Positions 8,229 through 26,913 of a DNA stretch of 32,000 nucleotides are shown here, one piece after another (the stretch's first letter is position 1; each line of letters starts with the position of its first letter). A program made the position numbers and the translations under genes. This stretch comes from Candidatus Nanosynbacter lyticus. GTDB taxonomy: Bacteria; Patescibacteriota; Saccharimonadia; Saccharimonadales; Saccharimonadaceae. The stretch lies in the NCBI RefSeq assembly GCF_000803625.1, contig NZ_CP007496.1, positions 30,001 through 62,000 of the forward strand, read 5' to 3'. A model generated the notes under the pieces. It did not search any database. It saw only the letters and a program-made list of their open reading frames with translations, and was not told the origin of the DNA.

Positions 8229-8259
8229 AAGATAAGAAGACAGCTTCTTTGATTATCTT
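8229..8259. terminator. Hairpin between tRNA-Ser and the convergent orphan gene (possible terminator)
   Basis: aagataa/ttatctt (7 bp) plus gaag/cttc (4 bp), with a 4-nt loop and a 5-nt bulge. T-rich sequence follows on the + strand. Confidence 0.35.
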
Positions 8260-9169
8260 AGTTATTTTTATGATTCCAGCCAACAATTTCTATAGATCTC
8301 CGAAGATATTTAGTTGTATCTTGAACAACTTTTTTCTTGATGTCATTGGGAATTTCTTTATAAAATAAAGCAAAAGTTCTTTCTATATAGACGTCTAGTG
8401 GCCAATCTGAATTAAAAAAGCTCGTATTGTTGGCTATCAGATCTTGGTAGGCCATTACGGTTTCTGCAAAATCATTTAGACAATCAGATATAATACTGGT
8501 CTTGACTTTTGATTTACGACTTCTTGTAGTCTTTTTTATAATGATATAGGAAAGATCTGAGGACTCTTCGTAGACATCATATTTTTCTGGTTGACGGTCC
8601 TTGTGAAACTCTAGTGCCTGATACTCGTTAACTATTTTATTGTAGTATCCTTCACTCTGAAATATTCGAGCTTTTTCTACTAGATAATTAACTGCCCGCT
8701 TGATTTTTGCATGGTTGTTGTCTATAAAGTCTACGCCCTTTATAGATTTATTTTTAGTGCGGGTGTTTATCCAGTCACCCAGTAATATGGGCGGTATGCG
8801 TTTGCTATTTTTATAGAAATCTATAAAATCTTCTACCTTTAGCACTTGGATATCTTTTATAAATTTTCCGCCAGCACCAGTTTCTCTTGGCGTTAATAAC
8901 TGGCGAATATCCAGCATAAATCCTTTTTCATGGGTTTCAAATATATTCATTAAGAGACCCGCATTGTCTGGATCAAAATCACCAAATGATACGCTACCGT
9001 TTTCATGCTCTTCTTCGCTATGTCGTGCTTTTGAAACTTCCACGAGGACATGAAGAATTACTTCACGTTGGATAGCAGCACGAAGTGTTTCAGCGAAGTC
9101 ATCTTTTATATAGGTTTTCTTTTTATCTTCGCCGAAATATTCTTTATTAATATCTGATACCACAGGCAT
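8258..9169 (-). CDS. Hypothetical protein (303 aa) in an AT-rich islet
   Basis: This is a long ORF in a region much more AT-rich than its neighbours. I recognise no family motif. The ATG at 9169 is preceded by TATAAT-ataagt. The tracked TTG at 9205 is the alternative start. Confidence 0.6.
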   Translation of the reverse strand: MPVVSDINKEYFGEDKKKTYIKDDFAETLRAAIQREVILHVLVEVSKARHSEEEHENGSVSFGDFDPDNAGLLMNIFETHEKGFMLDIRQLLTPRETGAGGKFIKDIQVLKVEDFIDFYKNSKRIPPILLGDWINTRTKNKSIKGVDFIDNNHAKIKRAVNYLVEKARIFQSEGYYNKIVNEYQALEFHKDRQPEKYDVYEESSDLSYIIIKKTTRSRKSKVKTSIISDCLNDFAETVMAYQDLIANNTSFFNSDWPLDVYIERTFALFYKEIPNDIKKKVVQDTTKYLRRSIEIVGWNHKNN

Positions 9170-9181
9170 ACTTATATTATA
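9170..9181 (-). promoter_or_regulatory. -10 box placed for a leaderless transcript of the orphan gene
   Basis: The minus strand reads TATAAT (9181..9176)-ataagt-ATG(9169). Confidence 0.4.
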
Positions 9182-9573
9182 TGGTAGATAGTGAGCTGGC
9201 AACAATCTGGTGTCGACGGCTTTCTATATCATAATTACCTACGCCATGACAAACCAGAACATGAGAGTAGAATCAATTGCAAAAATCCTAACTAACAATT
9301 GTGACGGTAATGTTTTAAATTTGACTTTGAGCGAACATTTAAAATATCCAAGAGAAATTGTATCAGCCAGAGATATTGCGATGTGAATAGCGGGAATTTG
9401 TTTTTGTGGATACCAAGAATCTCCAGAATATGTGTCGCATATGTAGGCTAATCATGGTTTTCGGGTAGATGAGTAATAAGCTTGTCCAGAAAATAAGTGA
9501 CGTTGCAGATTGATATAAATTTCATACGGTATCTGATTATAGTAAAAATAGGTTGTAATTTTTACCAAATTAC

Positions 9574-9603
9574 TTGCAAAACACTAGATATAGCGGCTAT
9601 AGT
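9574..9603 (+). promoter_or_regulatory. nrdA promoter
   Basis: TTGCAA (9574-9579), an 18-nt spacer, then TATAGT (9598-9603). Confidence 0.55.
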
Positions 9604-9628
9604 TAGTGTTGTACGCTATATGTATAGC
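9581..9628 (+). promoter_or_regulatory. Tandem NrdR-box-like palindromes (candidate nrd operator)
   Basis: ACACTAGATATAGCGG (9581-9596) matches 13 of 16 positions of the remembered NrdR consensus acaCwAtATaTwGtgt. ACGCTATATGTATAGC (9613-9628) matches 11 of 16 and lies within the near-perfect palindrome CGCTATAT/GTATAGCG. The centres are about 32 bp apart. The first box fills the -35/-10 spacer. Confidence 0.6.
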
Positions 9629-9722: not shown

Positions 9723-12125
9723 GTGAAAGAAATTAACGTGATTAAGCGTGATGGCACAAAAGAGCCATTTGATGCTAATAAAATTAACACAGCTATTTTG
9801 AAAGCCTGTGATGGCTTGCCGGATCAAATTTCTAAAGTTGTTCAGGTGGCAACCGAATTGCAATTGACCTTATTTGACGGGATTACCACTGAACAGTTAG
9901 ATGAGGCAGTGATTCAGACGGTTTTACAGAATGTTAAGGATGATCCAGATTATGATAAGATTGCGGCACGTTTACTGCTTAAAACGGTCTATAAGCAGAT
10001 TCTAGGTGATTATGAAACAGCAGCAGAATTGAAGAAGCTTCACGCTCGTGAATTTCCTAAGTTTATTAAGGCTGCGGTTAAAGATGGACTGTTAGACAAG
10101 CGAATGGCAGATGGCCGGTTTGATTTGAAAAAGTTGGCAGCGGAACTTGATCCAGCAAGAGATGATTTAAGTAAATATTTGGGTGTGGTGACCAATAAAA
10201 ATCGTTATGCTCTTCGTAGGCAAAACGGTTCACCAATTGAAACGCCGCAATTCACTCATATGCGTATTGCTATGGGGCTTAGCTACAACGAGACTGATCC
10301 GACTGCTGCAGCGATTGAGTTTTATAATCACATGAGCAATCTGGAGTATGTTCCGGGCGGCTCAACGCGAGTTAATGCTGGCGGCTCCTTCCCGCAGCTC
10401 AGTAACTGTTTCTTGCTTAATGTTGACGACGATATGGAATCAATTGCTAAGGCGGTGCGTGACACGATGTGGATTGCCAAAGGTACTGGTGGTATTGGTA
10501 TTGGTTTTACAAAGCTACGTGCAGCGGGCAGTCCAGTTAAAACCACCAACACCGAATCAACCGGTCCGATTCCGTTTATGAAGATGATTGATACGGCGCT
10601 GTTTGCAGTTTCTCGTAAAGGTAAGAAAGCCGGTGCGGCTGCGATTTACATAGAGAACTGGCATTTGAATTTTGACCAATTTGTCGATCTTCGCCAAAAC
10701 TCTGGCGACCCGTATCTAAGAACCAGGTTTGCTAATACGGCAGTCTTTATCTCTGATGAATTTATGAAGAGAGTAGAGAAAGACCAAGATTGGTATTTGT
10801 TTGACCCTGCGGAAACTCCAGACTTGACGGAATTATATGGTGAAGATTTCTCGGCACGATATAAAGAATATGTAAAGATGGCAGAAGATGGGAAATTGCG
10901 TACGTTCGATAAGGTATCGGCTCGTCAGCAATTTAAGCGTATTTTGACCAGCCTACAAGCAACATCGCATCCGTGGTTGACTTGGAAAGATACAATTAAC
11001 GTGCGGGCGCTGAATAATAATACCGGTACAATTCATCTCAGTAACTTGTGTACGGAGATTACCTTGCCGCAGGATAAAAACAATATTGCAACCTGTAATT
11101 TGGTGAGTATCAATTTATCGGCATTTCTGAGCGAGGATAAAACTTGGGACTGGGATCGATTGAAAGAAGCGGCTCGTGCGGCGGTGCGACAATTGGACAA
11201 TTTGTGTGATATTACTCAAACTCCAATTCCAGAAGCAATGCACTCTAATCAGCAGACGCGAGCAATTGGTTTGGGTATGATGGGATTTTCTGACGTGCTG
11301 GAAAAATTGGGCTATTGCTATGAATCAAAAGAGGCTTACGATTTAATTGATCAATTGACGGAATTTATTAGCTATCATGCCATTGATCAGTCAGCTGATT
11401 TGGCGGCGGAGTTGGGTAGTTATCCAACATTTACCGGCAGTGGCTGGAGTAAGGGATTGTTGCCGATTGATACGGTTGATAAGTTATCTAAAGATCGCGG
11501 CGTGAAGGTGAAAATAGACCAAAAGACACGACTGGACTGGGATAGCTTGCGAAAGAAGGTGAAGAAGGGAATGCGAAATGCGACTATTATGGCAATTGCG
11601 CCAACGGCTAATATTGGGCATGTGGCGGGAACGACTCCTGGAATTGATCCGCAATTTGCACAGATTTTCAGTCGTTCGACTTTGAACGGTAAGTTTCTGG
11701 AAGTGAACCATAATTTAGTTCGCGATTTGAAGAAGCTTGGTCTGTGGGACAATTTGAAGGATGAGATTTTTGCGGCGCAGGGCGATATTCAAGATATTGA
11801 TGGTATTCCGCAAAACATCAAGGATGTCTATAAAACAAGTTTCCAGCTTAGTCCGTACGCGTTTATTGAGGTGGCGGCTAGGGCTCAGAAGTGGGTCGAT
11901 CAAGCGATTTCTCGAAATATGTACCTGGAGACGCGAGACATTGATGAATATGTGAAGATTTATTCGGAAGCGTGGAAGCGTGGCTTGAAAACGACATATT
12001 ATCTGCACGTTAAGCCGCGTCACCAGTCGGAGCAGACAACAGTTTCAGTTGATAAAATTGCAGAACAAAAAGTCCGCACAAATAGTAAAGTGCGCGGATT
12101 TGGATTTGCGAAAATTAATAAATAA
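9723..12125 (+). CDS. nrdA: Class I ribonucleotide reductase alpha subunit with an N-terminal ATP-cone
   Basis: ATP-cone VIKRDGTKEPFDANKI; active-site regions LSNCFLL, NLCTEITLP and ATCNLVSINL; the radical-transfer pair KTTYYLH. The GTG start lies 4 nt after the SD AAGGAGGG. Confidence 0.95.
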   Translation: MKEINVIKRDGTKEPFDANKINTAILKACDGLPDQISKVVQVATELQLTLFDGITTEQLDEAVIQTVLQNVKDDPDYDKIAARLLLKTVYKQILGDYETAAELKKLHAREFPKFIKAAVKDGLLDKRMADGRFDLKKLAAELDPARDDLSKYLGVVTNKNRYALRRQNGSPIETPQFTHMRIAMGLSYNETDPTAAAIEFYNHMSNLEYVPGGSTRVNAGGSFPQLSNCFLLNVDDDMESIAKAVRDTMWIAKGTGGIGIGFTKLRAAGSPVKTTNTESTGPIPFMKMIDTALFAVSRKGKKAGAAAIYIENWHLNFDQFVDLRQNSGDPYLRTRFANTAVFISDEFMKRVEKDQDWYLFDPAETPDLTELYGEDFSARYKEYVKMAEDGKLRTFDKVSARQQFKRILTSLQATSHPWLTWKDTINVRALNNNTGTIHLSNLCTEITLPQDKNNIATCNLVSINLSAFLSEDKTWDWDRLKEAARAAVRQLDNLCDITQTPIPEAMHSNQQTRAIGLGMMGFSDVLEKLGYCYESKEAYDLIDQLTEFISYHAIDQSADLAAELGSYPTFTGSGWSKGLLPIDTVDKLSKDRGVKVKIDQKTRLDWDSLRKKVKKGMRNATIMAIAPTANIGHVAGTTPGIDPQFAQIFSRSTLNGKFLEVNHNLVRDLKKLGLWDNLKDEIFAAQGDIQDIDGIPQNIKDVYKTSFQLSPYAFIEVAARAQKWVDQAISRNMYLETRDIDEYVKIYSEAWKRGLKTTYYLHVKPRHQSEQTTVSVDKIAEQKVRTNSKVRGFGFAKINK

Positions 12126-12138
12126 GGAGGAAATTAAG

Positions 12139-13116
12139 ATGGGAATTTTAGGTTCAGGTCTGCGTGACGGTTTGTCACTTCACCCAATTCGTTACCCTTG
12201 GGCATATGATCTTTATAATCAAGCAGTGGCTAACACGTGGTTTCCAAATGAAGTTCAATTAGTTCAAGATTTGGCAGATTTTGAAAAATTGTCAGATGAT
12301 GAAAAGCACGCATTGAAAACAGTTATTAGTTATTTGAACCCAAACGAGTTATTGATCAATAAATCGTTAGCGTTCGGTATTTATCCATATGTGAACGCGG
12401 CGGAAGCTCAACTATACTTGTCAAAACAGATGTGGGAAGAAGCTAATCACTTCATGACGTTTGAATACATTATTGAGACATTTCCGTTTGATCGCGAGGA
12501 GATTTACGCTGCGGGCTTTGGTAAAAAATCATTGGCAGATAAGGCTGACTTCCAGAATAAGCATTTGGATGTGATGCTTGATCCGAATTTGGATATTTAT
12601 TCGCTGGAAGGTAAGAAGGACTTTGTTCGTTCATTGGTGGCATATAACATTGTGCTGGAGGGAATTTGGTTCTATTCGGGCTTTATGGTTGGCATGAGTT
12701 TCCGTCAGCGTAATTTGTTGCGCAATGTTGGCTCACTACTGGACTGGATTACTCGCGATGAAAATCTTCATTTGACGTTTGGTATCAATTTGCTTTTGAC
12801 GATTTTGGACGAGAATCCAGAATTGCAAACACAGGAATTTGCAGAAGAAATCCGTGGCTTGATTTTGCAGGCGGTAGAGCTTGAAAAAGCTTATAACAAA
12901 GATATGCTACCAAAGGGCATTTTGGGCTTGAACGCTGATTATGTCAATCAATATGTCATGCATATGACGGACCGTCGTTTGCAAGAATTGGGCTTTGAGC
13001 CAGAGTATAATGTGCCAAATCCAGCTAAATGGATGGCGGCCGCTAATGACACGTTGGAATTGGTAAACTTCTTTGAGAGTACAAATACTAGCTATGAAGT
13101 TAATACCACGAAGTAA
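12139..13116 (+). CDS. nrdB: Class I ribonucleotide reductase beta subunit, class Ic-like (R2c)
   Basis: Ferritin-like ligand pattern E70...E101-x2-H104...E174...E208-x2-H211, with F108 at the radical-Tyr position. It strongly resembles my recollection of Chlamydia R2c (WEEANHFMTF vs FEEAVHTHTF). The SD AAGGAGG lies 8 nt before the ATG at 12139. Confidence 0.92.
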   Translation: MGILGSGLRDGLSLHPIRYPWAYDLYNQAVANTWFPNEVQLVQDLADFEKLSDDEKHALKTVISYLNPNELLINKSLAFGIYPYVNAAEAQLYLSKQMWEEANHFMTFEYIIETFPFDREEIYAAGFGKKSLADKADFQNKHLDVMLDPNLDIYSLEGKKDFVRSLVAYNIVLEGIWFYSGFMVGMSFRQRNLLRNVGSLLDWITRDENLHLTFGINLLLTILDENPELQTQEFAEEIRGLILQAVELEKAYNKDMLPKGILGLNADYVNQYVMHMTDRRLQELGFEPEYNVPNPAKWMAAANDTLELVNFFESTNTSYEVNTTK

Positions 13117-13131
13117 TAAGGATGTAATTTT

Positions 13132-13527
13132 ATGAACGAACTGGCAAAAGAAATATTAGATACTGTTGAAGTTGGCGCCCTGGCTACTGTTAATGCTGAT
13201 AGGACACCACTGGTGACGCCAATACATTTTGCACGACTGGACGATTCAATAATTTGGATATCAGAACCGACTGCGCGACATTCAGTAAACGCATTTCGCA
13301 GCGGCAAGGCAGAATTTGTGGTTTGGGATGATCAAAAGCGGGCAGTTTTCTTAAAAACTAATGTAACTGAATTGTCAGAATCTGAAAAAGAAGCGGCTAT
13401 GGCGGCCTATAAGAAGAAATTGCCTAGCTTTATGCCACGCTGTCAGAATCCGCAATTATATATTGCACCAATCGGTAAACTTGATGAAAAAACCACAACA
13501 GGAAGTTGGCTACACTTTATTGCATAA
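13132..13527 (+). CDS. Pyridoxamine-5'-phosphate-oxidase-like (FMN-binding split-barrel) family protein
   Basis: 131 aa. The N-terminal pattern GALATVNADRTPLVTPIHF...IIWIS is typical of PNPOx-like small flavoproteins. It starts 15 nt after the nrdB stop with the SD AAGGA, so it is probably co-transcribed. Confidence 0.6.
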   Translation: MNELAKEILDTVEVGALATVNADRTPLVTPIHFARLDDSIIWISEPTARHSVNAFRSGKAEFVVWDDQKRAVFLKTNVTELSESEKEAAMAAYKKKLPSFMPRCQNPQLYIAPIGKLDEKTTTGSWLHFIA

Positions 13528-13575
13528 GCGCTATATCTAGCGTACAATTAGTTAAGTAACTACTAAATATAGGGG
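13520..13575 (+). promoter_or_regulatory. Promoter plus tandem NrdR-box-like operator upstream of the 57-aa mini-ORF
   Basis: TTGCAT (13520-13525), a 17-nt spacer, then TACAAT (13543-13548). Box GCGCTATATCTAGCGT (13528-13543) fills the spacer. A second box, CTACTAAATATAGGGG (13560-13575), is centred exactly 32 bp downstream. The reverse complement of the first box differs at 1 of 14 core positions from the nrdA box. Confidence 0.6.
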
Positions 13576-13584
13576 AAAATGAAA

Positions 13585-13758
13585 ATGAACGCAAGTCAAA
13601 TTATTACTGATGATATGACATTGGAAGAAAAATTGAGCGCTATTGATGCTGCCTTGAAAGCTGCTCAAGATGTGGCCGATGATCAAGCAAAGGCAAATGG
13701 TACTGTTGCTGCGCCAATTGATCCGGCAAGTTTGACTATCTGCGACGGTTGCGAATAA
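13585..13758 (+). CDS. Acidic 57-aa mini-protein ending in C-D-G-C-E
   Basis: It is below the ORF-track size cutoff and I translated it by hand: MNASQIITDDMTLEEKLSAIDAALKAAQDVADDQAKANGTVAAPIDPASLTICDGCE. The SD AGGGG lies 9 nt upstream. An in-frame ATG at 13579 is the alternative start. Confidence 0.55.
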   Translation: MNASQIITDDMTLEEKLSAIDAALKAAQDVADDQAKANGTVAAPIDPASLTICDGCE

Positions 13759-13779: not shown

Positions 13780-13808
13780 TTGACAAATTAAAAATAATGT
13801 GATATCAT
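13780..13808 (+). promoter_or_regulatory. Near-consensus promoter upstream of the second mini-ORF
   Basis: TTGACA (13780-13785), a 17-nt spacer, then TATCAT (13803-13808), preceded by TGtGA. Confidence 0.55.
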
Positions 13809-13843: not shown

Positions 13844-14002
13844 ATGGCTGAAGAAAAAGACGTTCATGGGCTCACGGAAAGTGTATTAAGTCGAGATGAT
13901 ATGTCAGCGCTAGCATATGTATTGCAACATGTGAAAGGCGCCAGTCCAAGTTCGGTGACGAAGCTGAGTTTGGAGTTGGAAGAACTTGACGAAGCGGTGT
14001 AA
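13844..14002 (+). CDS. Acidic 52-aa hypothetical mini-protein
   Basis: MAEEKDVHGLTESVLSRDDMSALAYVLQHVKGASPSSVTKLSLELEELDEAV. An AAAGGA SD-like element sits upstream of the ATG at 13844. The tracked start at 13799 lies inside the promoter. Confidence 0.45.
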   Translation: MAEEKDVHGLTESVLSRDDMSALAYVLQHVKGASPSSVTKLSLELEELDEAV

Positions 14003-24378: not shown

Positions 24379-26913
24379 ATGAAACGTCTAGTGGTTATTG
24401 ATGGAAAATCGGTGTTTTACCGAGGTTATTATGCTATGCCGGGGCTCAGTACGGCGGACGGTACGCCGACTGGCGGGGTGTATGGGTTTGTGAGTTTGGC
24501 GATTGAGCTTATCAAGAAATTGGAGCCGGATTATGTGGTGGTGGCCTGGGACAAGCGCGGTACCAACATCCGTAAGCGGCGGGAATTATATCCAGAATAC
24601 AAGGCCGGTCGCAAGCCGGCGCCTGATGATTTTTATCAGCAAATTCCAATCTTGATGGAACTGCTGGATGCGTTTGGCTGGCCACTGTATGAACTGGATG
24701 ATTATGAGGCGGACGACATCATGGGTGCATTTGCCAAGCAAGCGGAGGCGCGTGGTGTGCAGACCTGTCTATTGACGTCCGATTTGGATGCGCTGCAATT
24801 GGTGTCGCCTCTCACCAAAGTCTATGCTATGAAAAATGGCCTGAGGAATATCGAGGAATTTACGGCAGAATATTTTGAACAAAAATATGGTATTCGGACG
24901 GACCAGTTTTTGGATTTGAAGGCGCTAAAAGGTGATTCTAGCGACAATTTGCCGGGTGTGCCGGGCGTTGGTGAAAAGACAGCGGTCAAATTATTGCAAG
25001 CATATGAAACATTGGACGGCGTGTACGCACATGTGGATGAGCAAAAAGGTGCTCTACGGACAAAGCTGGAGAACGGCCGTGAATCTGCGTACTTAACTAA
25101 GCAAGTGGCAGAAATCTGGACGGACGCGCCGGTGGAGCTGGACTGGGAGGTGGCGGATGTTAATGATTGCGATTTTGCTCGGGTGGCGGAGATTTTGCGG
25201 AAACTGGAGTTTCATTCGCTGATTGGGCGGCTGCCAAAGACAATGCAAGCGGTGGATGAGGTAGTGGAGACGGCGGAGTTAGAGTTGCCGCAGGTTGACA
25301 ATTTGCCAGCTGAGCCGCTGTTTGAAACAGAGAATATTATCTATATTGATCCATCGGAACCGGACACGGTCTATATTAATTCTAAGCCTGGTGTAGCGTG
25401 GCGGGCCAAGATGAGTGAAATTGGTCAACATGTTTGGCAACTGTTGGCGCAGGGCGTAGTAATCGCGGCGGACGTCAAGGATCTATATCATGCGCTGGAC
25501 GCTCACGGTGTGACGGTGCGGTTTCATGAGGTCTGGGATGTTGGACAGGCGGCGTTTTTGATCGATCCATTGAGGCGCGACCGCAGTTTAGCGGCACTGG
25601 CGGGCGATTTTTCTGAGGATGATTCCGCGTCGCGACAGCTGGCACGACTACGCCAGATTTACCGCCAGCAGCAGGATTATATGGCAGCGCATCAGCAAGT
25701 TGCTCGGGTGCTCCGTGAGTTTGATTTTCCAGTAATTTGGTCGCTGTTTCAGATGGAAAAGCGCGGCATGAAACTGGACACAGCGCTGCTTGAGCGGATG
25801 GGCGAGGAGCTGAGGGCGGAGGTGAGCCAACTTGAACAACAAATGTATGCGATGGCTGGGAGTGAGTTCAATGCTGCTAGTCCGGCGCAGCTGTCTGAGG
25901 TGCTATTCACCAAGTTGCAGCTGCCGACGACTGGTATCAAAAAAGGAAAAACTGGCTATTCGACAGGGCAAAAAGAGCTGGATAAACTGCGTGGCCAACA
26001 CCCGATTATTGAACTGATTGAGCGGTACCGGGAGCTTACTAAATTGATTAGCACCTACATTGAAGCGCTGCCGAAGTTGGTGGCCGCGGACGGGCGGATT
26101 CACACCACATTTAATCAAGACGTCACCAGCACTGGGCGGCTGAGCAGCGCAAATCCTAACCTACAGAATATTCCGGTGCGTACGGAATTGGGTCGGAAAA
26201 TTCGCCAGGCATTTGTACCGAATGAGGATAAGGTCTTCGTTGGCGCGGATTATTCACAATTTGAGCTGCGGTTGGCAGCGGTGCTGGCGGGCGATGAGCA
26301 GCTGATTAACGATTTTAATAGCGATGTGGATATTCATACTAAAACGGCGGCCGAGACCTACGGCGTGCCGATGAGCGAGGTGACAAAATTACAGCGCCGC
26401 GCGGCTAAGGTGATCAACTTTGGGGTGCTGTACGGCATGAGTCCGCACGGATTGGCGGCGGCCACTGGCATGACATTTACTGAGGCGAAACAGTTTATTG
26501 AACACTATTTTGCGGTGCGCCAACCAATCCGCCAATATCTGGATACAATTTTAGTTCAAGCGCGCGAACAAGGTTTTGTCGAGACTTATTTTGGCCGGCG
26601 GCGACCAACGCCTGACGTTAAGTCGAGCAATTTTATGGTGCGTTCGGCGGCCGAGCGGGCAGCGATGAATATGCCAATTCAGGGCACGGAAGCTGATTTG
26701 ATGAAGCTGGCGATGATTCGACTGGAGGATAAATTAGCCGGGTTGGCTGAGCCGGTTCTACAAGTCCACGACTCGATTTTGGTGGAGTGTCGGCCAGAAG
26801 ACGCTGAGCGGGTCAGCGAAATAATGCGTGCGGAGATGGAAGGAATTTGTCCAGATCTGCCAATTAAATTAAAAGTTGACGTCGGCATGGGTGCTCATTG
26901 GGATGAAGTGTAG
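24379..26913 (+). CDS. polA: DNA polymerase I
   Basis: The 5' nuclease domain (VIDGKSVFYRGYYA, GDSSDNLPGVPGVGEKTA) is followed by family A polymerase motifs (DYSQFELRLAA, RRAAKVINFGVLYG, LQVHDSILVE). The central 3'-5' exo-like region lacks a recognisable DxE Exo I motif (IYIDPSEPD), so proofreading is probably absent. Confidence 0.95.
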   Translation: MKRLVVIDGKSVFYRGYYAMPGLSTADGTPTGGVYGFVSLAIELIKKLEPDYVVVAWDKRGTNIRKRRELYPEYKAGRKPAPDDFYQQIPILMELLDAFGWPLYELDDYEADDIMGAFAKQAEARGVQTCLLTSDLDALQLVSPLTKVYAMKNGLRNIEEFTAEYFEQKYGIRTDQFLDLKALKGDSSDNLPGVPGVGEKTAVKLLQAYETLDGVYAHVDEQKGALRTKLENGRESAYLTKQVAEIWTDAPVELDWEVADVNDCDFARVAEILRKLEFHSLIGRLPKTMQAVDEVVETAELELPQVDNLPAEPLFETENIIYIDPSEPDTVYINSKPGVAWRAKMSEIGQHVWQLLAQGVVIAADVKDLYHALDAHGVTVRFHEVWDVGQAAFLIDPLRRDRSLAALAGDFSEDDSASRQLARLRQIYRQQQDYMAAHQQVARVLREFDFPVIWSLFQMEKRGMKLDTALLERMGEELRAEVSQLEQQMYAMAGSEFNAASPAQLSEVLFTKLQLPTTGIKKGKTGYSTGQKELDKLRGQHPIIELIERYRELTKLISTYIEALPKLVAADGRIHTTFNQDVTSTGRLSSANPNLQNIPVRTELGRKIRQAFVPNEDKVFVGADYSQFELRLAAVLAGDEQLINDFNSDVDIHTKTAAETYGVPMSEVTKLQRRAAKVINFGVLYGMSPHGLAAATGMTFTEAKQFIEHYFAVRQPIRQYLDTILVQAREQGFVETYFGRRRPTPDVKSSNFMVRSAAERAAMNMPIQGTEADLMKLAMIRLEDKLAGLAEPVLQVHDSILVECRPEDAERVSEIMRAEMEGICPDLPIKLKVDVGMGAHWDEV

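Follow-up and report, generated by a model that had tools for sequence, protein, structure and literature searches.

How is a class I ribonucleotide reductase (RNR) turned over when its catalytic subunit has lost the cysteines through which electrons normally arrive? DNA building blocks have no de novo source other than RNR, and in class I and class II enzymes the tail cysteines are the point of electron entry. In ordinary class I enzymes, the cysteine pair of the NrdA tail enters the active site at each turnover and reduces the disulfide formed there, and the pair is then re-reduced by thioredoxin, glutaredoxin or NrdH, a redoxin dedicated to RNR. The question is raised by the nrdAB locus of Candidatus Nanosynbacter lyticus (TM7x), which we analysed in a 32,000-nt stretch of contig NZ_CP007496.1 (positions 30,001 to 62,000; hereafter the window, with positions counted from its first letter). 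Its NrdA lacks the tail cysteines, and a neighbouring open reading frame (ORF) of 57 amino acids (aa) at 13585-13758 (the mini gene, encoding the mini-protein) ends in a cysteine pair and carries a copy of the nrdA promoter/operator module. Our analysis indicates that the mini-protein is probably a trans-acting, detached C-terminal redox tail of this class Ia NrdA, under the control of NrdR. A preliminary description of the locus had put forward the trans-acting redox tail as a hypothesis, which now draws support from the CEACQ-type ending that the peptide shares with NrdA tails, the tail-less NrdAs linked to it and the phage copies paired with redoxins, the function itself being one that we infer.

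The mini gene and its family

The features of the mini gene are as follows.

13585..13758, + strand: mini-protein gene, 57 aa (conservation, substitution rates and exact look-up); an alternative ATG at 13579 gives 59 aa
13621..13698, + strand: predicted long amphipathic helix, residues 13-38 (AlphaFold2 on alignment A1, mean predicted local distance difference test score 84.6), holding the conserved MTLEEKLxAIDxAM
13714..13755, + strand: tail motif P-I-D-P-A-S-L-T-I-C53-D-G-C56-E with the proposed redox cysteine pair (family conservation; match to NrdA C-termini)

The coordinates, the acidic character (net charge about -8) and the C-D-G-C-E ending agree with the preliminary description, but the ORF is not unannotated, as had been stated there: exact look-up finds the 59-aa form in GenBank as AJA06692.1, hypothetical protein TM7x_00240, and the 57-aa form as WP_158386480.1. 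Homologues fall into 638 clusters at 90% identity in a search of 5.8 billion proteins, and an exhaustive search of 1.84 billion gave 91 representatives (50% identity) at E <=0.001, nearly all of them 45-80 aa long, with matches that usually extend to the last residue. A scan of one genome per species found a relative in 317 species genomes, and the loci inspected below are 80 of these, all from Saccharibacteria or Patescibacteria. The family consensus is MNAxxIIxDxMTLEEKLxAIDxAM...PxDPAxLTxCxGC(Q/E), with the ending ...DPxxLTxC(E/D)GC(Q/E), and across 75 sequences D46 never varies, with P47, C53 and C56 each conserved in at least 90%. As in a redox tail, the cysteine pair of the window protein lies within the last residues of the chain (C53-D-G-C56-E57-stop).

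The median ratio of nonsynonymous to synonymous substitution rates (dN/dS) was 0.033 over 68 distinct alleles, none of which was disrupted, and variable columns at codon positions 1, 2 and 3 numbered 31, 20 and 55. By these measures the mini ORF is a real gene under strong purifying selection, and the conservation and coding signature on which the preliminary description had let its hypothesis stand or fall are both present.

Neither Pfam, NCBIfam nor PDB sequence profiles gave a meaningful match to the mini-protein (PDB coiled-coil noise only, E >=0.03), and PHROGs gave a marginal match to an unnamed family (phrog_14482, E 0.0067). A thioredoxin fold finds no footing here, with no Pfam or NCBIfam match, a helical AlphaFold2 model and a CxxC at the C-terminus. 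Several other candidates were rejected, namely a precursor of a ribosomally synthesised and post-translationally modified peptide (no modification enzymes adjoin the gene in any arrangement), a Pup-like tag, suggested by the terminal Q/E (the chain ends C-x-x-C-Q/E, not GGQ/E, and the context gives no support), and a mimic of the NrdB tail (the FFE...Y motif is absent). Two proteins of 371-375 aa in the 90% cluster of the mini-protein are unrelated to it in sequence and were set aside as a clustering artefact. The supplements of a TM7x transcriptome preprint contained no nrd genes or locus tags.

A catalytic subunit without tail cysteines

The catalytic subunit is encoded upstream.

9723..12125, + strand: nrdA, class Ia RNR large subunit, 800 aa, one ATP-cone (Pfam; NCBIfam NF005101, 1317 bits)

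The match of the window NrdA to NF005101 stops at profile position 788 of 822, and no cysteine occurs among the 39 residues past its TTYYL motif, which end RGFGFAKINK, in agreement with the earlier statement that this NrdA has no C-terminal cysteine pair. All NrdAs linked to a mini gene end in the same way, ...GFGFAK(x) without cysteine, with a conserved GFGF motif. The motifs PQLSNCFLL, SNLCTEI and IATCNLVSINL of the window protein align to cysteine motifs of the large subunits (R1) of Pseudomonas aeruginosa and human, namely the redox-active pair and the thiyl-radical cysteine, and since these active-site cysteines are kept, each turnover should still leave an active-site disulfide. Sequence analysis thus finds a loss of tail cysteines from NrdA that is complementary to the mini-protein and leaves the active-site cysteines in place. 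As in a split RNR, the catalytic chain is without tail cysteines and an adjoining gene supplies them, the mini-protein being a separate ORF rather than a covalent part of the catalytic subunit.

The ending of the mini-protein is close to that of conventional NrdA tails. Nine comparison NrdAs, from organisms of five phyla, were taken from plasmid and chromid records. They belong to the haloarchaea Halorussus and Natrinema, the cyanobacterium Acaryochloris, the actinomycete Nonomuraea and the alpha-, beta- and gamma-proteobacteria Pseudomonas, Acinetobacter, Legionella, Azospira and Phyllobacterium. Each of the nine has the ending ...[DN]Px(0-2)CEACQ-stop, in most cases in the form ACSIDNPDCEACQ, near the ending of the mini family. 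A divergent chromosomal member of that family (L128) ends FACPIDPAERALCEACQ, which contains CEACQ itself and the extra upstream cysteine seen in ACSIDNPDCEACQ. The 80 loci contain 4101 ORFs; 81 of these have the ending C[ED][AGS]C[QE], namely the mini genes and one further ORF, and 106 finish with a CxxC of any kind. Ten loci with a cysteine-tailed NrdA had no free tail peptide in the nrdA-nrdB spacer or in the available flanks. Profile alignment of the mini family with NrdA tails by hhalign covered five columns only (CeGCQ/CEACQ; P 0.0037, probability 8.9%), and homology of the mini-protein to NrdA tails is likely rather than proven.

The basic GFGFAK motif (window 12086-12125) was found in every tail-less NrdA examined, in Saccharibacteria and in the viral and metagenomic loci described below (L136-L138, L212, L214), and in 0 of 10 cysteine-tailed homologues; it may be a docking site for a free tail peptide.

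Two matching predicted NrdR operators

The nrdA gene and the mini gene are each preceded by a promoter module with two predicted NrdR boxes, scored on the conserved positions C4 A6 A8 T9 T11 G13.

9574..9603, + strand: predicted nrdA promoter, -35 TTGCAA at 9574-9579, 18-bp spacer, -10 TATAGT at 9598-9603 (consensus scan, 9/12)
9581..9596, no strand: NrdR box 1 of nrdA, ACACTAGATATAGCGG, filling the -35/-10 spacer; 6/6 conserved positions
9613..9628, no strand: NrdR box 2 of nrdA, ACGCTATATGTATAGC, 16 bp past box 1; 5/6 positions (T, not G, at position 13)
13520..13548, + strand: predicted mini-gene promoter, -35 TTGCAT at 13520-13525, 17-bp spacer, -10 TACAAT at 13543-13548 (read from the sequence)
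13528..13543, no strand: NrdR box 1 of the mini gene, GCGCTATATCTAGCGT, between -35 and -10; 6/6 positions
13560..13575, no strand: NrdR box 2 of the mini gene, CTACTAAATATAGGGG, 16 bp past box 1; 6/6 positions; overlaps the ribosome-binding site GGGG at 13572-13575

An NrdR site consists of two partially palindromic 16-bp boxes that lie 15-16 bp apart and usually overlap the promoter (PMC13584703, PMC12051234, PMC9110341), with C4 A6 A8 T9 T11 G13 as the conserved positions (PMC13584703); some groups have a linker of 24-27 bp. At both loci in the window the linker is 16 bp and box 1 lies between the predicted -35 and -10 hexamers. The reverse complement of mini box 1, ACGCTAGATATAGCGC, equals nrdA box 1 at 14/16 positions. 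Both modules are well supported by these sequence rules as canonical NrdR operators to which binding is predicted, in line with the preliminary description, which had suspected NrdR and advised a check for its gene. The shared architecture reported there also reads as described: its 14/15 spacer match is exact, and the second palindromes, each 16 bp past box 1, are 32 bp from the first, centre to centre. For the mini-gene promoter, the -35 hexamer is as given there, but it is weak; the promoter is not called by the consensus scan because this hexamer equals TTGACA at just 3/6 positions.

Within the window, the degenerate 15-mer ACRCTAGATATAGCG with <=2 mismatches matches at 9581-9595 and 13529-13543 only (expected 0.05), and the core CTANATATAG matches three times (9584, 13531 on the minus strand, and 13563) against 0.10 expected. 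When box pairs were scored on the six conserved positions with a linker of 15-16 bp, and Markov-chain simulations served as null, these two pairs alone reached >=11/12 (simulated mean 0.23). The preliminary description would have abandoned its idea had the palindrome turned up at many unrelated promoters; within the window it has two sites only. A box-pair-like site at 26500-26545 (GAACACTATTTTGCGG, 14 bp, CGCCAATATCTGGATA; 5/6 + 6/6) was taken as chance, since its linker of 14 bp breaks the rule and it falls within the coding sequence of polA. Comparison with Rfam gave no RNA family across the whole window, which rules out a riboswitch or leader RNA.

The arrangement is conserved among relatives. 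All 63 distinct regions upstream of nrdA have a box pair. Of the 60 distinct regions that precede the mini gene, 49 have one, and these are exactly the nrdAB-PNPOx-mini loci of Nanosynbacter-like genomes; the -10 after mini box 1 is likewise conserved. Three divergent loci with a separate promoter (L041, L057, L128) have a perfect box 1 and a -10 upstream of the mini gene. L043 has no NrdR box there, and none precedes the mini gene in eight loci with the order nrdA-mini-nrdB, as expected with co-transcription from the nrdA operator. Sequence analysis thereby assigns an NrdR-type operator, or operon membership, to the mini gene in every chromosomal arrangement. NrdR consists of a zinc ribbon and an ATP-cone. 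A zinc-ribbon regular expression, applied to the window and to the ~1.4 Mb of Saccharibacteria loci that were fetched, found no nrdR, and we found no literature on NrdR in Saccharibacteria or Patescibacteria; NrdR is encoded by the cultivated Saccharibacterium Southlakia epibionticum (SEML1_0176; PMC10633639 supplement).

Linkage of the mini gene to nrdAB

Two further genes lie between nrdA and the mini gene in the window.

12136..13116, + strand: nrdB, RNR small subunit, 326 aa (Pfam Ribonuc_red_sm, 1.6e-72; NCBIfam NF007186)
13132..13527, + strand: PNPOx-like FMN-binding split-barrel protein, 131 aa (Pfam PF01243, 1.9e-08); last gene of the nrdAB unit in this clade

The synteny with nrdAB that had been suggested as a check holds throughout: the mini gene adjoins nrdAB in 80/80 loci inspected. 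In one arrangement the order is nrdA-nrdB-PNPOx-mini, as in the window, where the mini ORF begins 1460 bp past the nrdA stop and has its own start codon, ribosome-binding site and promoter, and where the stop codon of the PNPOx gene falls inside the mini promoter, just past the -35 hexamer (13520-13525). In the other, the order is nrdA-mini-nrdB (L031, L032, L036-L040 and L050, with 25-125 bp from the nrdA stop to the mini start), an order also found in L122, whose member is 44% identical; in the eight loci other than L122, a common frame of nrdA and the mini gene could hint at recent fission or read-through, but by our count it occurs in 4/8, which is uninformative. The PNPOx gene is kept between nrdB and the mini gene in Nanosynbacter-like loci of the first arrangement (SEML1_0031 in S. 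epibionticum) and is absent from those of the second, and its product might be a flavin reductase for upkeep of the NrdB cofactor or part of the redox relay.

Southlakia epibionticum has a 195-bp hypothetical gene in the equivalent place after nrdA-nrdB-PNPOx, and it also encodes an NrdH-redoxin and a thioredoxin (PMC10633639 supplements); this gene, SEML1_0030, is likened to the mini-protein by position and size only. In transposon sequencing of this organism, nrdA, nrdB, the PNPOx gene, the 195-bp gene and NrdH were all scored non-essential (PMC10633639). NrdR was essential in the same data though its RNR enzyme scored as dispensable, which is odd; unregulated RNR may be toxic, or NrdR may have other targets.

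Tail-less NrdAs and free tail peptides in other lineages

Viral contigs searched with the window NrdA revealed the same division of the enzyme elsewhere. Three contigs (L136-L138) encode NrdAs 60-62% identical to that of the window, ending ...KKGFGFAVAKN without cysteine, and just upstream of nrdA a tiny ORF ending ...CPVDPM(E/D)LLNCESCQ or ...VPQDPMDLLQCDSCQ. A more distant NrdA (L139, 38% identity) has a tail of its own, ...VCSLEEGCESCQ, and no peptide accompanies it. In L212 and L214, two loci of the metagenome scan described next, the peptide ORF lies between nrdB and nrdA, and the NrdA is 64-65% identical to the window's, with GFG motifs and no cysteine. The peptides of these five loci are 28-35 aa long and end ...DPM(D/E)LL(Q/N)C(D/E)SCQ. 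Two side features were seen on the viral contigs: the tail-less NrdA of L138 (1736-5098) is 1120 aa long and matches the window NrdA in two pieces, which suggests that it carries an intein, and in L137 a 315-aa ORF stands between the tail peptide and nrdA.

A metagenome scan with the tail motif returned >600 stretches, of which 541 were confirmed. In 78 of the 80 loci kept, the ORF is 25-29 aa long, typically MNEDNVGGYAVPVDPMDLLQCDSCQ, on contigs with a G+C content of 0.50-0.69. This micro-ORF can be written M(N/D)NEDNVGGYAVPVDPMDLLQCDSCQ (L140-L219; e.g. L187 4001-4075, L152 4001-4084); the contigs look actinobacterial, and the coding signature is clear in a dN/dS of 0.067 and in 24/25 variable third codon positions. 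In most of the other loci, the micro-ORF follows tRNA-Thr/tRNA-Met genes and precedes hadAB and murB, and the nearest 4 kb hold no RNR gene. The named isolates with the peptide are Microbacteriaceae (Yonghaparkia, Alpinimonas, Salinibacterium), and GenBank labels its 25- and 28-aa forms "ribonucleotide-diphosphate reductase subunit beta" or "hypothetical protein", which is a label and not a described function. The 25-35-aa actinobacterial and phage versions are without the N-terminal helix, so that the tail motif would be the common functional core.

Phage copies and their redoxin partners

Many homologues of the mini-protein are found on contigs of ~63-68 kb. One of these (L086), with a mini copy 81% identical to the window protein, carries YqaJ, Rad52-like, RusA, SSB, RNA ligase and 7-deazaguanine genes, a gene content that identifies it as a phage. 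In 43 phage or viral loci of several lineages (G+C 0.37-0.53), neither nrdA nor nrdB occurs within the available flanks of up to 10 kb; the mini copies sit in modules for replication and nucleotide metabolism, with thymidylate synthase, SSB and RusA among their genes. A tblastn search of the INPHARED collection of GenBank phages gave no match, the phage copies being in IMG/VR and metagenome assemblies only.

NrdH and glutaredoxins reduce RNR tails, and redoxin-type genes are found directly after or near the mini gene in 11/43 phage loci. In L096, L098 and L127 an NrdH-redoxin follows directly (CVQC, WSGFRP; TIGR02194 93 and 89 bits, cutoff 85.75 bits), in L102, L103, L106, L130 and L131 a glutaredoxin-like gene with CAFC follows directly, with stop/start overlap in some, and in L110-L112 a glutaredoxin-like gene lies one ORF away. 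Such translational coupling of the mini gene to redoxin genes would be expected of the next link in an RNR-tail relay. Six of nine 65-kb phage loci have a possible NrdR box pair ~200 bp before the mini gene, but it is weak and was not relied on.

Several other features of the phage loci were observed. A DUF6378 (PF19905) gene lies next to or near the mini gene in L086-L094, L096, L098, L108, L109, L114, L116, L117, L123 and L125, and directly downstream of it in the 65-kb phage group; related PHROGs are partly labelled "phosphofructokinase", which is doubtful. In L095 (10159-10308) and L100 (304-480) a second small ORF directly follows the mini gene, with an unrelated N-terminus and the same type of ending (...IPIDPMDELQCDSCQ and ...VPTDPMDDLQCDSCQ), making up tandem tail peptides that belong to a subfamily of three clusters. 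L086 also encodes an 867-aa protein with faint Hint/intein matches.

Proposed role and competing explanations

If the mini-protein is a detached tail, electrons would pass from NADPH through thioredoxin reductase and NrdH or thioredoxin to Cys53/Cys56 of the mini-protein, and from there to the active-site disulfide of NrdA, the thiol chemistry and the reductant being presumed. The helix of residues 13-38 could tether the peptide on NrdA, perhaps near the GFGFAK end. Since the mini promoter is itself occupied by a canonical NrdR-box pair, co-repression and derepression with nrdAB would be expected, with the predicted binding of NrdR, a dATP/ATP-sensing repressor, acting on both units together. 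Read-through from nrdAB-PNPOx may add to expression of the mini gene and is probable because no terminator was detected, and the separate promoter together with such read-through might allow more tail than enzyme to be made. Phages could supply extra tail and redoxin to push the RNR of their host.

Several points weigh against this reading. The likeness to NrdA tails spans ~5-14 residues, too short for statistical proof, and convergence is possible; a free peptide would lose the high local concentration of a tethered tail; and the N-terminal helix, to which a tethering role is assigned by inference, does not occur in the short versions. No RNR gene adjoins the phage copies or the majority of the actinobacterial 25-aa peptides, so that the family could serve other thiol-disulfide partners. 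The presence of nrdR in this genome is deduced from a relative, the gene having not been seen in the window or the fetched loci. With nrdA, nrdB and the positional counterpart of the mini gene all non-essential in S. epibionticum, loss-of-function phenotypes may be weak in co-culture, and stress may be required to bring them out. The role of the mini-protein is proposed on the grounds of sequence analysis.

Another kind of RNR accessory factor is an unlikely explanation, for example a metal or cofactor chaperone that serves NrdB through the CxxC, an adaptor that recruits NrdH, or a small regulator or inhibitor of NrdA like yeast Sml1. Any RNR-linked role would suit the synteny and the NrdR co-regulation, a terminal CxxC can bind metals, and the long helix of the AlphaFold2 model could be a protein-binding element. 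However, an accessory factor leaves unexplained both the copy of the NrdA tail ending and the loss of tail cysteines in exactly the linked NrdAs; the 25-35-aa versions contain little beyond the tail motif, and the NrdH- and glutaredoxin-like neighbours point to thiol-disulfide exchange.

The 43 of 43 phage loci without nrdA or nrdB in their flanks, and the majority of actinobacterial micro-ORFs at tRNA-Thr/tRNA-Met...hadAB-murB, would fit a general small thiol-disulfide shuttle or a zinc-dependent dimerising microprotein, for which RNR is one partner or a historical neighbour and whose use by phages is unrelated to RNR. We consider this very unlikely, given that all 80 loci inspected from the 317 species genomes are at nrdAB, under NrdR boxes or in the operon, that the NrdH beside phage copies, which matches TIGR02194, is a redoxin dedicated to RNR, that the phage copies lie in replication and nucleotide-metabolism modules, and that a phage can act on the tail-less RNR of its host. 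Mere coincidence of palindromes and ORF, the latter being unexpressed or functionless, has the weak -35 hexamer in its favour but is already refuted, as far as sequence evidence allows, by the low dN/dS, the 0 disrupted among 68 alleles, the hundreds of homologues, the boxes conserved across relatives and the chance expectation of 0.05 for the motif, and it deserves practically no credence.

Returning to the detached tail, our results raise the wider possibility, which we advance tentatively, that free tail peptides of 25-60 residues (...DPxxLxxC(D/E)(S/G/A)CQ) are a class of microproteins that has gone unrecognised although widespread across Saccharibacteria, Actinobacteria (Microbacteriaceae and others) and their phages. 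They could act as diffusible shuttles from NrdH or thioredoxin to RNR for a tail-less clade of class Ia enzymes, and the phage copies, often accompanied by NrdH or glutaredoxin, could drive the host RNR.

Comparison with known systems

In yeast, the C-terminal CX2C of Rnr1 acts on the neighbouring protomer, which means that a tail can serve an active site to which it is not covalently adjacent, although the yeast tail, unlike the mini-protein, is still part of the R1 chain. The genes-in-pieces NrdA of phage Aeh1 works when encoded in pieces, but its split, the work of a homing endonuclease, interrupts the catalytic domain.

In Escherichia coli, the tail pair of NrdA is C754/C759, most class I enzymes have CXXC instead, and this pair passes electrons to the active-site disulfide (PMC4520616, PMC9669993); according to surveys of the RNR family, the double-cysteine motif of class I RNRs is "almost exclusively" part of the catalytic subunit (PMC9669993). 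The mini-protein resembles the NrdA tails of class I and II in its extreme C-terminal cysteine pair after a flexible acidic stretch, with C-E/D-G-C-Q/E close to CEACQ, and differs from them as a separate 57-aa product with its own promoter/operator and an added N-terminal helix. The nearest described system by analogy is the split class II RNR of P. aeruginosa, in which NrdJa is catalytic and NrdJb, encoded by the adjacent gene, contributes the redox cysteines of the C-terminus in trans; turnover with physiological reductants depends on NrdJb (PMC4520616). There, too, the catalytic chain is without C-terminal cysteines and a neighbouring gene provides them, but that enzyme is an adenosylcobalamin-dependent class II RNR, whereas the present one is a class Ia NrdA/NrdB. 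NrdJb is a folded protein, IscU-like with a zinc finger, whereas the mini-protein is predicted to be a single helix and a tail with no Pfam or NCBIfam domain, and the two have no sequence relationship.

Like NrdH, glutaredoxin and T4 NrdC, the mini-protein is a small CxxC protein encoded with RNR genes, and those redoxins are NrdR-regulated in many bacteria and often phage-borne; unlike them, it has no thioredoxin fold, and its CxxC is C-terminal, not near the N-terminus. In phages, the mini gene stands next to NrdH- or glutaredoxin-like genes and does not replace them, which suggests that its product acts one step downstream. The operators share with usual NrdR sites the two 16-bp boxes with the six conserved bases, the 15-16 bp linker and the promoter overlap, but the mini gene that one of them controls is not recognised as an RNR subunit, and this second operator copy lies 4 kb downstream of that of nrdA, directly after the last gene of the operon. 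The proposal thus combines known chemistry with a known type of split, and what would be new is its occurrence in class I, the microprotein form, the dedicated NrdR operator and the phage-borne copies. The preliminary description knew of no such factor, and we likewise found no published description of a free-standing class I tail, of the mini-protein family or of the peptide sequence itself in the accessible literature, most subscription journals lying outside the search.

If the detached-tail reading is correct, RNR annotation would change, since such NrdAs give the impression of being defective and the peptide goes under the name "hypothetical" or, wrongly, NrdB, and the conserved gene TM7x_00240 and its relatives in Saccharibacteria would gain a function. 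The reduction step would be separately regulable, with the amount of tail set apart from the amount of enzyme, and the finding would bear on how phages might take over the deoxynucleoside triphosphate synthesis of their hosts. Should the broader class of free tail peptides be real as well, the electron-entry point of RNR would be a separately regulated and horizontally mobile part. The idea is directly testable, as TM7x and S. epibionticum are both cultivated and the latter is genetically tractable.

Neighbouring genes

Upstream of nrdA, a 315-aa ORF on the minus strand (8258-9205) has no Pfam match; its homologue (100% identity) was found in 1/80 related loci (L080, Ca. Minimicrobia vallesae), as for a strain-variable gene. 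Downstream of the mini gene and just upstream of argS, a 52-aa ORF (13844-14002, MAEEKDVHGL...) has no family match and is preceded by the strongest promoter-like site of the region (TTGACA, 17 bp, TG-TATCAT, 13780-13808). This ORF is conserved upstream of argS in related loci at 40-96% identity, and S. epibionticum has a 168-bp hypothetical gene there. The mini gene and the 52-aa ORF are within 90 bp of each other in the window, and in relatives (L001-L080) the stretch from the mini gene to the 52-aa ORF or argS is longer by an insert of 1-6 kb, which in S. epibionticum is a CTP synthase gene, so that this interval looks like a variable insertion spot beside a conserved nucleotide-metabolism cluster.

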